A stretch of DNA of 64,000 nt from a bacterium (GTDB lineage Bacteria; UBA8248): positions 1-64,000 of the forward strand of contig CBDBZY010000012.1 in assembly GCA_965213685.1 (NCBI GenBank). Reading direction: 5' to 3'. Shown here in pieces: positions 36,021 to 43,080 of this stretch; the stretch's first letter is position 1; each line of letters begins with the position of its first letter. The translations under genes and the position numbers were made by a program. The notes beneath the pieces were generated by a model that did not search any database, was not told where the DNA came from, and saw nothing but the letters and a program-made list of their open reading frames with translations.

Positions 36021-36983
36021 ATGCAAATCGTCATTCCCGACGACAGCTTCCGGTTGTTTGAGAATTCCGAGGCACTCGAACGCCTGCGCACCCTGGGCGA
36101 CGTGCGCCACTACACCGAGAGAGCCGAAAGCGGGGAGGCGCTCCTGGAGCGTCTCCAGGATGCGGAAATCATTCTGACGACAAGGTATCAAACCGACTTC
36201 AAGACGACCGATTTGCTGGATCGCATCCCCCGCCTGAGGATGATCTCCGTGATGGGCACGCGCCCGCGCATGATCGACATGGAGCGCGCCAACGCGCGCG
36301 GCATCGTGGTGAGCACCACGCCTGCGGCGAGTGCCGCCTCGGTCGCCGAGCACACGATGATGCTGGTGCTGGCCCTCTCGAAGAGGATGCCGATCATGTT
36401 CCCCGCCATGCGAGCGGGGGGCTGGCCGCAAGACCAGGGGGTCGAGCTGGCCGGAAAGACGCTGGGGCTCATTGGCTTCGGCCACATCGCTCGCCTCGTT
36501 TGCCGCATGGCGCTCGGCTTCGGGATGCGCGTCGTCGCTTGGTCGCGCTCGATGACGCCTGCGCGCGCGGGGGCGGAGGGTGCGGAGGCGGCCTCCGTGG
36601 ATGAATGCCTGGGGGCGGATGTGGTGTCGCTCCACATCCATCTGCCGGCGGGGGCCGCGCCCTTCATGTCGAGAGAGAAATTCGCCCGGATGAAGAAAAC
36701 GGCGTACTTCATCAACACTTCGCGCGCCCGCATCGTGGATGGCGACGCCTTGCTGGACGCCTTGCGGGATGGCCGCATCGCCGGTGCCGGCCTCGACGTG
36801 TTCGAGCCCTTCGAGCCCCTGCCGGGGGATTCGCCGTACCGCTCCCTGGACAACGTCCTCATCACGCCGCATTCGGCCTGGATCACCGACGGCACGTATG
36901 CGCGATTCCGGAACGCGCCGGTGGCGAACGTCGAGGCGTTTCTCAGAGGCGCGCCCACCCACGTCGTGAGAGAGGACGCCTGA
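36021..36983 (+). CDS. D-2-hydroxyacid dehydrogenase family
   Basis: GLIGFGHIA, NTSR, DVF..EPL, TPH. Confidence 0.9.
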   Translation: MQIVIPDDSFRLFENSEALERLRTLGDVRHYTERAESGEALLERLQDAEIILTTRYQTDFKTTDLLDRIPRLRMISVMGTRPRMIDMERANARGIVVSTTPAASAASVAEHTMMLVLALSKRMPIMFPAMRAGGWPQDQGVELAGKTLGLIGFGHIARLVCRMALGFGMRVVAWSRSMTPARAGAEGAEAASVDECLGADVVSLHIHLPAGAAPFMSREKFARMKKTAYFINTSRARIVDGDALLDALRDGRIAGAGLDVFEPFEPLPGDSPYRSLDNVLITPHSAWITDGTYARFRNAPVANVEAFLRGAPTHVVREDA

Positions 36984-37073: not shown

Positions 37074-37754
37074 CTAATCCTTCTTGATCAGTATGTTGTT
37101 GTACAGCACCGCCGCCGCCACGCCTCCGATGATGGGCCCTATCCAGTAGACGAGATGGTTGACGCCGTCAAAACCGCCGCCGGCGAGTGCGGTGCCGAAG
37201 GTGCGCGCCGGGTTCATGGCCGCTCCCGTGAGCGGGCCGCCCATCAGGATGTCGGCGGCGACGGTCAGGCCAATCGCGAAACCGCCGACGTCAGGGCGCC
37301 TGTCGTCCACGGCGGATCCCCAGATGGCGGTCACCAGGAAAAATGTGAGGACGATCTCGATCAGGACGCCCGTCCCGAAGCTCACGTCGCTCGCGAGGGT
37401 AGGCGTCCCCAGATTCACCTTCTGCCAGACGTCGGCGTCAAAAATGACTCGCAGGAGGATGCCGGCCACGGTTCCCCCCACCAGCTGGCTGATGATGTAG
37501 GAGGCGCCCGTCCCGCCGTCGGTCTTTTTCGTCACCATGAAGCCGATGGTGACGGCCGGGTTGTAATGGGCACCCGAGACGTGCCCCAGTGCGGAAATCA
37601 TGACCGACAGGATCAAGCCGTGCGCCAGGGCGATGCCGATCAAGCCCACGGCGCCTCCCGTTTTTTGGTTCAGGATGATGGCGCCGGCGCCGATGAAGCA
37701 CAGCGCGAAGGTGCCGATGGCTTCGGCCACGCAGGCTCTTCCTGTAGGACTCAT
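37074..37754 (-). CDS. MIP family channel (aquaporin)
   Basis: Two NPA motifs (HYNPAVT, MNPART), AEAIGTF, YWIGP. Confidence 0.95.
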   Translation of the reverse strand: MSPTGRACVAEAIGTFALCFIGAGAIILNQKTGGAVGLIGIALAHGLILSVMISALGHVSGAHYNPAVTIGFMVTKKTDGGTGASYIISQLVGGTVAGILLRVIFDADVWQKVNLGTPTLASDVSFGTGVLIEIVLTFFLVTAIWGSAVDDRRPDVGGFAIGLTVAADILMGGPLTGAAMNPARTFGTALAGGGFDGVNHLVYWIGPIIGGVAAAVLYNNILIKKD

Positions 37755-37891: not shown

Positions 37892-38851
37892 TCATGGAGC
37901 GGACACCACGTTTTGGGGCTTCCCCGAGAGGGCGGCGGCGATGTTCTCGACCGCCATCAGGAGGCCGGCCTCCGTCACCTCGGGCGTGATGCCCGCGTTG
38001 TGGGGGGAGAGAACCACGTTTTCCAGCTTTCCCAACGGGTGGTGCGGCGGCAGGGGCTCCTGGTCGAACACGTCGAGGCCCGCGGCGGCCAGGGCGCCGT
38101 TTTCCAGGGCGGATACGAGCGCCCCCTCGTCCACGATGGGGCCCCGTGCGGTGTTCACCAGGATGGTGTTTGGCCCCATGCGGGAAAACGCCTCGGCGCC
38201 GACCATGCCGACGGTATCCGCCGATTGCCGCACGTGGACGGAGACGACGTCGGCCCGCTCGTACAAATCGTCCAGCCCGACGAACCGCAGTCCCACCTCT
38301 GCGGCGAAATCATCGTCCGGATGAAACGTCCAGGCGATGAGGTGCATCCCGATTCCGGCGGCGATGCGGGCCGTCTGCCGGCCGATGGCGCCCAAGCCGA
38401 TGAGGCCGAGGGTTTTTCCGCTCAGCTGCGTCATCCGGCCACGGGGCCATTCCCCCGCCCGCATGGCGGAGTCGTTCCGGGGTATCTGGCGCGCGGCCGC
38501 CATCATGAGCGCCAGGGCATGTTCCGCCACGGAAACGGCGGCCACGCCCGGCGTGTTCGATACGATGACGTCTGCGGCCCCGGCCGCCTCCAGTGCGACG
38601 TGATCCGTGCCCGTTCCCCAGATGGACAGCACCCGGAGGCCGCGACAACGCGAGAAAAAATTCGCGTCGAACTTGCAGAAGGCCCGTATGTTGATGACGC
38701 CGTCCGCCCCGCTCACGCGGCGGAGCAATTCTTCGGGCGTCTGCGGATTCGACCCGTGAATTTCCGCATCGCCGATCTCCCGCAGGCGCGCCTCGGCGGC
38801 GCTGCCCGCGAAAACGGACGGGTAGTCGTCCGGCACAACGATTCTGCTCAC
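37892..38851 (-). CDS. D-2-hydroxyacid dehydrogenase family
   Basis: GLIGLGAIG, NTARG, DVFDQEP, SPHNAG. Confidence 0.9.
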   Translation of the reverse strand: MSRIVVPDDYPSVFAGSAAEARLREIGDAEIHGSNPQTPEELLRRVSGADGVINIRAFCKFDANFFSRCRGLRVLSIWGTGTDHVALEAAGAADVIVSNTPGVAAVSVAEHALALMMAAARQIPRNDSAMRAGEWPRGRMTQLSGKTLGLIGLGAIGRQTARIAAGIGMHLIAWTFHPDDDFAAEVGLRFVGLDDLYERADVVSVHVRQSADTVGMVGAEAFSRMGPNTILVNTARGPIVDEGALVSALENGALAAAGLDVFDQEPLPPHHPLGKLENVVLSPHNAGITPEVTEAGLLMAVENIAAALSGKPQNVVSAP

Positions 38852-38973
38852 GAACCCTCCCTCCTCCTTGCGCGCCAGAAAATGAACGCGCCCGACGGTT
38901 CTCTTTTGCCGTCCCTTTGTGCATCATGCGCAAGTTCGCCTGTATTCTTATGACACTGAAGGAGACAAGACAA

Positions 38974-39528
38974 GTGACGCCCCTCGACCCACGCAAAGAC
39001 AGCGCAATTCCCGGCGAGCGCACGATTGACAAGCCGGAACTGCCTCCGCAGGGCTATGCCTTCACCATGTCCGCCGACACGGAAACGATAGAGGGAAAGG
39101 GACAACTCAAGCGGGGGACGCACAGACACTTCGAGGTGTATTGCGACGAGCCGCCCCGCATCGGAGGCGAGGACTCCTACCCGCAGCCGCTTTGCTACAT
39201 CGCCATGGGGGTGGGGTTCTGACTGCTCACCCAGCTGGCGCGGTACGCGCACATGATGAAGGTGTCCTTCCGGCACGCCAGGGTGCACGTGGATTTCGAC
39301 TATTTTCTCGGCGGCTCCGTCCTCCGGGGGACGGTGCGTTCGGGCTGCTCCGAGGTGCGCACGCATTTCGAGGTGGAGTCCGACGAGGCGGCGGAGAGGA
39401 TTCTGGCGGTCATCCGGAACGCGAAGCGAGGGTGCTTTGCCGAGCAGATGGTGACGGCCGCCGTTCCGCTGAAAAGCACGGTGGCGCTGAATGGCGAGTC
39501 GGTTTCCCTGGGCGGCGCATCGGAATGA
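38974..39528 (+). CDS. OsmC-like selenoprotein (184 aa, Sec at UGA 39220-39222)
   Basis: The two ORF-track fragments are in the same frame, separated only by TGA; DEPPRIGG..P.PL.Y....GF-U-LLT then a second Cys in RGCFAE; AAGGAG RBS before GTG 38974. Confidence 0.85.
39223..39264 (+). promoter_or_regulatory. Bacterial SECIS-like hairpin
   Basis: GCGCG-GTA-CGCGC apical stem at 39238-39250 with a G-initiated loop about 20 nt after UGA; lower stem includes CACC/GGTG. Confidence 0.7.
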
Positions 39529-39610
39529 GGCGCGCGTCCGCGATGCGACGGGCGTCACGCGGTCGCGGAGGGGATTTCAGTTCCCCGGGGCGCGCACCGG
39601 GAATGAGGCG
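39459..39610 (+). repeat. Imperfect tandem duplication (~74-78 bp) of the osmC-like 3' end
   Basis: TCGGTTTCCCTGGGCGGCGCATCGGAATGAGGCG (39499-39532) versus TCAGTTCCCCGGGGCGCGCACCGGGAATGAGGCG (39577-39610). Confidence 0.7.
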
Positions 39611-39655
39611 GAAAACGCCCGGAGGCCGGGTCTCGCGTCGGCTGAAGCCTGCGCT

Positions 39656-41167
39656 CTAGGCGGGGGTTGAATTCGCCGCCACCGCGCGCCGTCCCGCAGC
39701 GGTTCCCGCCAGTCGCCCGTATACGGAGCCGAGGGTGAGCCCCGCTCCCCCCGGGTAGTTGAAGTAATAGACGCCGCCCACGAGTTCGCCCGCGGCGAAA
39801 AGCCCGGGGATGACCTCGTTTTCGGCGTTCATGACCTCGGCTTTGGGCGTCACGCGGATGCCGCCGAAGGTGAACGTGATGCCCGTGGTGACGGCGAAGC
39901 CGAGATAGGGCGGCGCGTCGATGGGCAGTGCCCAGTTCGACTTGGGCGGGTCGATGCCCTTCGTGCGTTTGCCGTCCTTGATGGTCGGGTTGTATGCGCC
40001 CGGCTGAACCGCCGCGTTGTATTCCCGAATCGTCCGGACGAAGGCGTCGACCTCGATGTCGAGCTGCTCGGCGAGTTCCTCCAGGGTGCCGGCCTCGGCC
40101 TTGGTGACCTCGCGGATGCGGTATTCGTCGCGGAGCATGTGCACCGTTTTCTGGTCGAATATCTGGAAGGCGGCCCGCTGGGGCTGCTGGAGGATGTTTC
40201 GTCCGTATTTGGCGTAGGTGTAGTTTCGGAAGTCGGCTCCCTCGTCCACGAAGCGCTTGCCCTCGATGTTCACGATGACGCCGAACGGGTAGGAGTGCTT
40301 CTGGTAGGATTCGCCCACCGTGAGGTCGCCGAAGGGCGGGGCGTTCAAATCCCAGGCGACGGCGTGGCAGCCGCTCCAGTTCCCGTAAGGCTGGGCGCCG
40401 ATGTCGAGGGCCATCCGGATGCCGTCGCCCGTGTTGTAGGGGGTGCCGCGGACTTTCGCGAGCTCCCAGCCCGGGCCGAGGTATCGGCAGCGCATCTCGG
40501 AGTTCGCCTCGAAACCGCCCGAGGCCAGCACCACCCCGTGCGCCTCGATTTCGTAAGGCCCCTCGGGGCCTTTCACCTCCACGCCCCGCACGCCGCCCAT
40601 GGGGTCCGTGAGAAGTCGGGTGGCCTTCGATGCGTAGCGGACCTCGACGCCCGCCTTGTTCGCGGCGTCGAGGAGCGAGTCGATGAGGCCGCGCCCGCCC
40701 CCGACGATTTCGAGAATCAGCCCGCCCCAGAAGCGCATCTTGCCGTCCACCTGGAAGGCCTGCCTGCCGGCGGCGAGGATGAGCCGCAATCCCTTGGACT
40801 GCATCCATTTCAGGGTCGGGAACGATTCGTGGATGAGCACGGAGGCGAGGTCGCCGTCCGTCTGGTATTCGGTCAGCATGGCGAGGTCGTCAAAGAATTT
40901 TTCGGACGTGTAGGGCTCAATCTCGATGGCTTCCTTCTCGGCGTCGGACAGATCGGGCACGAGCGAATAGATGTCCTCGATGCTGTGGAAGGCGAAGCGA
41001 AACAGCCCTCCGGAAAAAGCCGAGTTGCCGCCGCGCCACGCCTCGGGCGCCTTCTCCAGGGCCAAAACCCTCTCCGCCCCCTGGTCGCGGGCCGCGAGCG
41101 CCGCGCAGAGCGCGGCGTTGCCGCAGCCCACGACGACGACGTCGTATTTCTCTGTAGCGTTCGGCAT
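39656..41167 (-). CDS. tcuA: FAD-dependent tricarballylate dehydrogenase TcuA-like
   Basis: VVGCGNAA, RGGNS, ASGGFEAN, RGTPYNTGDG, GITFTFGG, NYPGGAGL. Confidence 0.8.
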   Translation of the reverse strand: MPNATEKYDVVVVGCGNAALCAALAARDQGAERVLALEKAPEAWRGGNSAFSGGLFRFAFHSIEDIYSLVPDLSDAEKEAIEIEPYTSEKFFDDLAMLTEYQTDGDLASVLIHESFPTLKWMQSKGLRLILAAGRQAFQVDGKMRFWGGLILEIVGGGRGLIDSLLDAANKAGVEVRYASKATRLLTDPMGGVRGVEVKGPEGPYEIEAHGVVLASGGFEANSEMRCRYLGPGWELAKVRGTPYNTGDGIRMALDIGAQPYGNWSGCHAVAWDLNAPPFGDLTVGESYQKHSYPFGVIVNIEGKRFVDEGADFRNYTYAKYGRNILQQPQRAAFQIFDQKTVHMLRDEYRIREVTKAEAGTLEELAEQLDIEVDAFVRTIREYNAAVQPGAYNPTIKDGKRTKGIDPPKSNWALPIDAPPYLGFAVTTGITFTFGGIRVTPKAEVMNAENEVIPGLFAAGELVGGVYYFNYPGGAGLTLGSVYGRLAGTAAGRRAVAANSTPA

Positions 41168-42351: not shown

Positions 42352-43080
42352 ATGCCCGCGCACTCTGCGATCGAATGGACCGAGGTCACCTGGAACCCCG
42401 TGACGGGCTGCACGAAGATCAGCGAGGGGTGCAAGCACTGCTACGCGGAGCGCATGGCCAGAAGGTTGCAAGCCATGGGAGTGGAGAAATACAGGGAGGG
42501 GTTCTCTGTCGCCGTTCACGAAGCCGCACTCGACGCTCCGCTGAAATGGCGGCGGCCGCGTCTCGTCTTCGTCAACTCCATGTCCGACCTGTTCCACAGG
42601 TCGGTTCCGTCAGCGTTCATCGAGGCCGTCTTCGACGTCATGAATCGGGCGTCCCGGCACACCTTTCAGGTGCTCACCAAGCGCCCGCGCCGCGCGGTCG
42701 CCCTGAACAAGAAGCTGCGCTGGTCGCCGAACATCTGGCTGGGCACGAGCATCGAGAACGAGAGGTGGCTGGAGCGGCTGGCGGTGCTTCGGGAGACCGG
42801 CGCTCAAACGAAGTTCCTGTCTCTCGAGCCCCTGCTGGGGCCCTTGCCGGGTCTGGACCTGCGCAGCGTCGACTGGGTGATCGTCGGAGGCGAGTCGGGG
42901 CCGGGAGCGAGGCCGATGGAAGCGGACTGGGTGCGGGAGATACGGGACAACTGCTTTCAGCACGACGTGCCGTTCTTCTTCAAGCAATGGGGAGGCGTAT
43001 TCAAAAAAAGGACTGGGCGGACCCTGGATGACCGCACATGGGAGCAAATGCCGGCACCGGTATCGCGGCGCAGGGAATAG
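42352..43080 (+). CDS. DUF5131 / phage Gp37-Gp68 family (radical-SAM-like)
   Basis: IEWTEVTWNPVTGCTKISEGCKHCYA (CX6CX2C), SMSDLFH, LTKR, SLEPLL, WVIVGGESG, FFKQWGG. Confidence 0.93.
   Translation: MPAHSAIEWTEVTWNPVTGCTKISEGCKHCYAERMARRLQAMGVEKYREGFSVAVHEAALDAPLKWRRPRLVFVNSMSDLFHRSVPSAFIEAVFDVMNRASRHTFQVLTKRPRRAVALNKKLRWSPNIWLGTSIENERWLERLAVLRETGAQTKFLSLEPLLGPLPGLDLRSVDWVIVGGESGPGARPMEADWVREIRDNCFQHDVPFFFKQWGGVFKKRTGRTLDDRTWEQMPAPVSRRRE

Follow-up and report, generated by a model that had tools for sequence, protein, structure and literature searches.

A predicted OsmC-like UxxT selenoprotein gene, divided by an in-frame UGA into two open reading frames, in a bacterium of the GTDB lineage UBA8248

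The region analysed here, hereafter the window, comprises 64,000 nucleotides of contig CBDBZY010000012.1 (positions 1 to 64,000, forward strand) of assembly GCA_965213685.1. On its plus strand, two open reading frames, 38917-39222 and 39253-39528, lie in a common frame whose sole interruption is the TGA codon at 39220-39222. Reading through this codon from the GTG at 38974 yields a protein of 184 residues that carries the motifs GVGF-U-LLTQ, with the putative selenocysteine (Sec) at position 83, and KRGCFAEQ, with a cysteine at position 154; the single frame broken only by one TGA, as proposed in the initial annotation, was reproduced from the sequence. The coding sequence of the predicted OsmC-like selenoprotein spans 38974-39528 (+), with a GTG start, 184 codons and a stop at 39526-39528 (+) that is also TGA and has no hairpin behind it equivalent to the one that follows the internal TGA. 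The in-frame UGA at 39220-39222 (+) is read as selenocysteine (U83, motif U-L-L-T) by comparison of TGA and Cys at this column among homologues. The TGC codon at 39433-39435 (+) encodes Cys154 in the context G-C-F-A-E; this presumed resolving cysteine is invariant in 47 of 47 family members and corresponds to the second conserved cysteine of the structures 3cje and 2onf. The locus also contains a SECIS-like hairpin at 39237-39251 (+), with a G+C core of 5 bp (39238-39242 with 39246-39250) that closes a GUA loop at 39243-39245.

A Shine-Dalgarno-like AGGAG, identified by reading the sequence, is located at 38960-38964 (+), 9 nt 5' of the start codon, and the same stretch is retained in the orthologues as K-E-T codons 5' of the start. 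The open frame of one orthologue (L094) extends just one codon 5' of the counterpart of GTG 38974, and a stop codon two codons upstream leaves this counterpart as the only possible start; in another (L097) the start lies one residue away from it. The AGGAG and the frame opening in L094, with the nearby start of L097, support GTG 38974 as the initiation codon. At the other end of the gene, TAA, TAG or TGA stands at the same place in loci L081-L099, and the 17 genus-level orthologues (L081-L096 and L130, the last outside the stop scan, which covered L081-L099) end mostly in TAA. A scan of 38800-39750 for promoter and terminator consensus sequences found none.

Isolated on its own strand, the selenoprotein gene is flanked by two genes of the opposite strand: a 2-hydroxyacid dehydrogenase of about 320 aa (37892-38851, -), which is divergent from it, and an FAD_binding_2 oxidoreductase (39656-41167, -), which is convergent with it. 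Since the flanking genes lie on the opposite strand, they do not form an operon with the selenoprotein gene. Further upstream are a MIP channel gene (37074-37754, -) and a second 2-hydroxyacid dehydrogenase gene (36021-36983, +), also of about 320 aa, so that two dehydrogenase genes on opposite strands flank the channel gene; a DUF5131 protein at 42352-43080 (+; 336.5 bits) is unrelated to the selenoprotein. The order MIP channel, 2-hydroxyacid dehydrogenase, OsmC-like selenoprotein and FAD_binding_2 oxidoreductase is kept in the 17 genus-level loci (L081-L096, L130). Among more distant loci, L105 and L106 retain both the channel and the dehydrogenase, L100 and L101 only the dehydrogenase, and L097 and L099 only the channel. 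No peroxide regulon genes were seen among these kept neighbours.

The read-through protein matches the NCBIfam model NF041052, "OsmC-related (seleno)protein", with 179.9 bits (E 2.5e-53; cut-off 95), and the match covers model positions 2-144 of 144; when the genome was scanned with the same model, this gene scored 171.9 bits with one TGA inside the match. The Pfam OsmC domain (PF02566) is matched with 46 bits against a cut-off of 27.5, and the OsmC domain spans both halves flanking the UGA, whether judged by Pfam, by NF041052 or by the structure model. That model was computed with AlphaFold2 on a 47-row alignment, which drew on 42 of 51 representatives at less than 85% identity out of 114 unique sequences, and it has a mean pLDDT of 90.2 and a pTM of 0.81. 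Its top PDB matches in Foldseek are all OsmC/Ohr proteins, namely 2opl (E 4.5e-9), followed by 2onf, 3cje, 1lql, 6mjn, 1vla and Ohr structures, and these results bear out the initial assignment to the OsmC family. In the sequence alignment, 3cje and 2onf each have their two conserved cysteines at the columns of U83 and Cys154. U83-L-L-T86 and C154 are invariant in all 47 aligned members, as are D58-E59, and R90 is nearly so in the same family alignment. In Ohr/OsmC proteins, a catalytic Arg and a Glu surround the reactive Cys. On the evidence of its sequence, the gene is a predicted OsmC-like UxxT selenoprotein and a member of NF041052.

The occurrence of TGA at the Sec column was examined at several levels of relatedness. 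Within its own genome, three genes score above the threshold of NF041052, and in all three a single TGA stands in the context GF-U-LLTQ. Across this genome and its relatives the family is present in 31 of 41 genomes and TGA occurs in 100 of 100 family matches, while in the phylum 48 of 51 genomes contain the family, at 2 to 11 copies per genome, and one TGA is found in 150 of 150 among the matches listed, 27 further matches having been obtained in the same survey. In public species-representative genomes, a search pattern that accepted any residue at the Sec column returned TGA at 83 of 83 motif matches, in 80 loci. Among the sources of these loci are metagenome-assembled genomes (MAGs) labelled Betaproteobacteria and Burkholderiales, and the Sec form thus extends beyond one lineage; the closest relatives of the window's gene, at 84-89% identity, come from MAGs labelled Nitrospinota or Nitrospinaceae. 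In the relatives' loci L073, L074, L101 and L105, NF041052 genes also occur as tandem pairs with a spacing of about 600 nt, and every copy has a TGA and a hairpin of its own. A protein database search returned seven relatives, full-length or partial, six of which were aligned (P0008, a fragment of 117 aa, was left out); four of the six carry Cys at this column (GFCLLTQ; P0002, P0003, P0004 and P0006) and the others carry W (P0005) and S. Selenoprotein prediction is founded on such pairing of Sec with Cys. The homologue column proposed for checking in the initial annotation thus holds TGA in all 83 public motif matches and Cys in four of six database proteins, and its description of a clean TGA codon exactly at the Cys site stands.

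Two further observations concern the integrity of the codon and of the frame behind it. Three runs of one study, possibly those from which the assembly was made, yield contigs that span the entire stretch and show no difference from it, and a second study contributes a contig spanning 39185-39585, which has five differences, all outside the TGA; the codon proposed for confirmation in sequencing data is accordingly present in contigs of four runs from two studies, without difference at 39220-39222. Among the 17 orthologues, the part 3' of the TGA shows 244, 189 and 568 differences at codon positions 1, 2 and 3, respectively, and its changed codons comprise 477 synonymous against 295 non-synonymous ones. 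This concentration of changes at third codon positions, mostly synonymous, indicates that the part 3' of the TGA is translated in frame.

The core of the hairpin, GCGCG-GTA-CGCGC at 39238-39250, begins 15 nt after the UGA, and its loop G (39243) follows the A of the UGA at a distance of 20 nt. A sixth pair, 39237/39251, is G.A in the window's copy and is paired in most relatives. Conservation of the structure was evaluated in an alignment of 50 distinct related sequences, obtained from 52 unique motif matches minus two chance TAA matches (L043, and L051 on the minus strand). In the six-pair helix (alignment columns 18-23 with 27-32), 97% of 300 cells are paired, compensatory changes occur in four of the six pairs, with 42 cells changed on both sides, and pairing falls to 9-72% when the partner strand is displaced by 1 to 3 columns. 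Pair types at one helix position include C-G, A-U and G-C, and at another G-C, A-U and U-A, and the covariation score of the alignment is not attained by any of 500 shuffles. In the loop, G and U do not vary among the 50 sequences, and the last of the three bases is either A or U. For example, in the codon for residue +6 a change at position 2 from C to A or G is matched by a wobble change from G to T or C in the opposite Ala codon. Because such non-synonymous changes in the 5' arm are offset by synonymous wobble changes in the 3' arm, the RNA appears to be selected beyond the peptide; the hairpin lies within a strongly conserved peptide, and part of its conservation is at the protein level.

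The 71-nt stretch folded alone is no more stable than shuffles (z = 0.73), and since this single-sequence value is unremarkable, support for the hairpin is comparative rather than drawn from folding energy. A scan of 39100-39400 against Rfam, at E values up to 10, found no matching family. The initial annotation had described a SECIS-like hairpin with a loop G about 20 nt from the UGA, set on a lower stem closed by CACC/GGTG; the upper hairpin, its compensatory changes and the position of the loop G held, and the lower stem was dropped from the element, as it is paired in 65% of cells against 97% for the upper hairpin in the same 50 sequences.

The genome carries genes for Sec insertion. A tRNA-Sec gene scores 78.6 bits against a cut-off of 47 and is called tRNA-SeC with anticodon tca by ARAGORN; selA scores 501.6 bits and occupies an open frame of 568 aa; and selB, which adjoins selA, occupies an open frame of 652 aa whose wing domain scores 77.6 bits. 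The selD gene matches with 172 bits and is present in at least three frame pieces in the assembly. It is itself a TGA gene, with TGA at the catalytic G-G-U-G-S-K site (contig C31, approximately 101342-102130, minus strand; L011/L014/L016), and at least three shifts of frame occur along roughly 1 kb of its sequence. An assembly error is likelier than decay as the cause of these breaks, since indel breaks had been noticed in other genes; if they were real decay, Sec synthesis would fail. The earlier proposal that the host has the Sec trait is borne out by the tRNA-Sec, SelA and SelB, with a selD that is matched and frame-broken as assembled.

Several observations on the remainder of the assembly were made alongside. 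A selD-like gene beside a paralogue on contig C44 was considered as a functional link and dropped, being AIR-synthase-like and scoring 86.2 bits against the selD cut-off of 125. At C44:160715-162345 (-) the paralogue lies about 480 nt upstream of this AIR-synthase-like gene, and the intervening translation looked tRNA-like; the tRNA-Sec gene is also on C44, about 60 kb away. The assembly comprises 7.97 Mb in 71 contigs with 54% G+C, approximately twice the 2.9-4.6 Mb of 22 genomes of the same genus, and notwithstanding this larger size its NF041052 copies are the usual three. A second kind of OsmC-family gene is found at C31:8790-9281 (+) (L022:1438-1929), with TGA at the catalytic column (A-G-H-A-G-U-G-L-Y-T) and a C-terminal N-C-P-I-H. 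It scores 50 bits for Pfam OsmC and 58.9 bits for NF041052, below the cut-off of 95, and RNAfold places a hairpin about 13 nt after its UGA; it may be the Sec form of a different OsmC branch outside the curated model.

Considering these results, we regard it as very probable that 38974-39528 is an intact gene for an OsmC-like UxxT selenoprotein of 184 residues, in which the UGA at 39220-39222 would be decoded as Sec by SelB and tRNA-Sec by means of the hairpin, and the TGA at 39526, which lacks an equivalent hairpin behind it, would terminate translation. During decoding, SelB and tRNA-Sec would be directed to the UGA by the hairpin at 39238-39250. In the structure model, the long central helix (residues 72-94) would carry Sec83 where OsmC/Ohr proteins have their reactive Cys; from this position Sec83 could attack a hydroperoxide or other oxidised substrate and be converted to a selenenic acid. 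Cys154, located where helix 140-153 meets helix 155-161, would then resolve this intermediate to a selenenylsulfide, and a thiol reductant would recycle the latter. Such a peroxidase-type redox mechanism of Sec83 and Cys154, suggested by the OsmC/Ohr fold and the aligned reactive positions, has about an even chance of being correct, and we infer a possible peroxide or sulfur-redox role solely from likeness to OsmC/Ohr.

The alternative that fares best accepts a genuine selenoprotein and assigns it another task: it would be no hydroperoxide reductase and instead some other Sec/Cys redox protein or carrier, acting on persulfide, selenium or disulfide, as is conceivable for the uncharacterised COG1765/YhfA-like branch of the OsmC superfamily. 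We consider this a serious possibility, somewhat short of an even chance. The 2005 paper that described the family files it under COG1765, "predicted redox protein" (PMC1088965), the closest solved structures are titled only OsmC-like or putative, and the presence of 3 to 11 copies per genome suggests several substrates. The kept neighbours (MIP channel, 2-hydroxyacid dehydrogenase, FAD oxidoreductase) point in the same direction, with no peroxide regulon gene seen among them; however, the selenoprotein gene is alone on its strand, so these neighbours are not an operon with it, and both the fold and the two reactive positions match those of the OsmC/Ohr peroxidases. A bolder proposal starts from the lineage itself (MAGs labelled Nitrospinota or Tectomicrobia), where the family appears only in Sec form and in several paralogues, with the window's copy in a fixed place: the paralogues could be selenium-dependent enzymes with non-hydroperoxide substrates, representing a new activity within the OsmC fold. 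We regard this proposal as improbable.

It is very unlikely that the UGA is instead read as a residue other than Sec, either by reassignment to Trp or Gly or by near-cognate read-through, or that it acts as a stop, with the second half translated separately from ATG 39253. The W at the Sec column of homologue P0005 would agree with reassignment, and it may be a gene call made under a code in which TGA is Trp. Against a reassigned code, TGA is also the codon at which this gene terminates, and in the orthologues that position is occupied by TAA, TAG or TGA, so that TGA is a stop in this lineage. Any non-Sec reading must also be set against a genome with tRNA-Sec, SelA and SelB, a conserved hairpin after the UGA, and Cys at this column in homologues that lack the TGA, as expected of a Sec/Cys pair, while two separate halves conflict with an OsmC domain that spans both. 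The notion of a Cys-type OsmC gene turned into a pseudogene by a nonsense mutation, or artefactually interrupted through faulty sequencing or assembly, draws on the frame breaks elsewhere in the assembly (at least three switches in selD) and on the single base that separates TGA from TGC and TGT, but it is hardly credible and in practice refuted by TGA in 100 of 100 family matches, in 150 of 150 among the matches listed for the phylum and in 83 of 83 public motif matches, besides the three paralogues of the genome itself, by contigs from two studies without difference at the TGA, and by a downstream part that evolves as coding sequence.

The selenoprotein reading places the gene within a documented group. 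The earlier statement that UxxT OsmC-like selenoproteins had been predicted before is in line with Zhang, Fomenko & Gladyshev (2005; PMC1088965), who list an OsmC-like protein with the motif UXXT and a predicted SECIS, under COG1765, among 15 new prokaryotic selenoprotein families; two reviews, PMC9312934 (2022) and PMC13188914 (2026), list the OsmC-like selenoprotein again. According to PMC13326102 (2026, BSepDB), MAGs of GTDB UBA8248, labelled Nitrospinota, carry 48-54 selenoprotein genes and are among the richest bacteria in this respect; FO_M_Nitrospinota_01, a MAG in that work, is the source of loci L099, L113 and L158. A literature search on Nitrospin and selenoprotein found only this article, whose main text does not mention OsmC; its supplements, like those of PMC1088965, may list the family genome by genome. 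The feature is therefore already known, as a curated and published family in a lineage known to be rich in selenoproteins. The gene would be an added member of the family described in 2005 and modelled by NCBI, and its recognition is an annotation fix rather than a discovery. In practical terms, the two fragments should be merged into one Sec gene, as should those of the two sister copies elsewhere in the genome, which is itself best handled as Sec-decoding.

Compared with known systems, the hairpin resembles bacterial SECIS elements in lying directly 3' of the UGA inside the coding sequence and in presenting a small loop with a conserved G followed by U. The type example of such elements is that of E. 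coli fdhF. In contrast to them, the window's element is very short (5-7 pairs with a 3-nt loop) and matches no Rfam model, and its binding by SelB is putative. As for the protein, its best matches, 2opl (GSU2788), 3cje (Jann_2040) and 2onf (Ta0195), with sequence E values of 1.3e-7 to 1.8e-3 and fold E values of 4.5e-9 to 3e-7, are Cys proteins from structural-genomics entries whose titles go no further than OsmC-like or putative. With the OsmC/Ohr thiol peroxidases (PF02566; 1vla, 6eb4, 1n2f and 1zb9) the predicted selenoprotein has the fold in common (Foldseek probability 1.00, TM 0.45-0.62), and the two reactive positions are in equal places, Sec replacing the first Cys. It differs from them by an identity of only 13-21%, by roughly 30 additional residues at the N-terminus, for which the confidence of the model is low, and by a second Cys situated in G-C-F-A-E, whereas in typical OsmC/Ohr proteins the second Cys is found in a C-P context. 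With the OsmC-like UxxT family of NF041052, as described in PMC1088965, the agreement extends to the U-x-x-T motif (here U-L-L-T), the Sec/Cys pair and the small apical loop with a G; no difference of kind separates the window's gene from this family, its particular features being a TGA as true stop and a G.A at the outermost pair of the hairpin.
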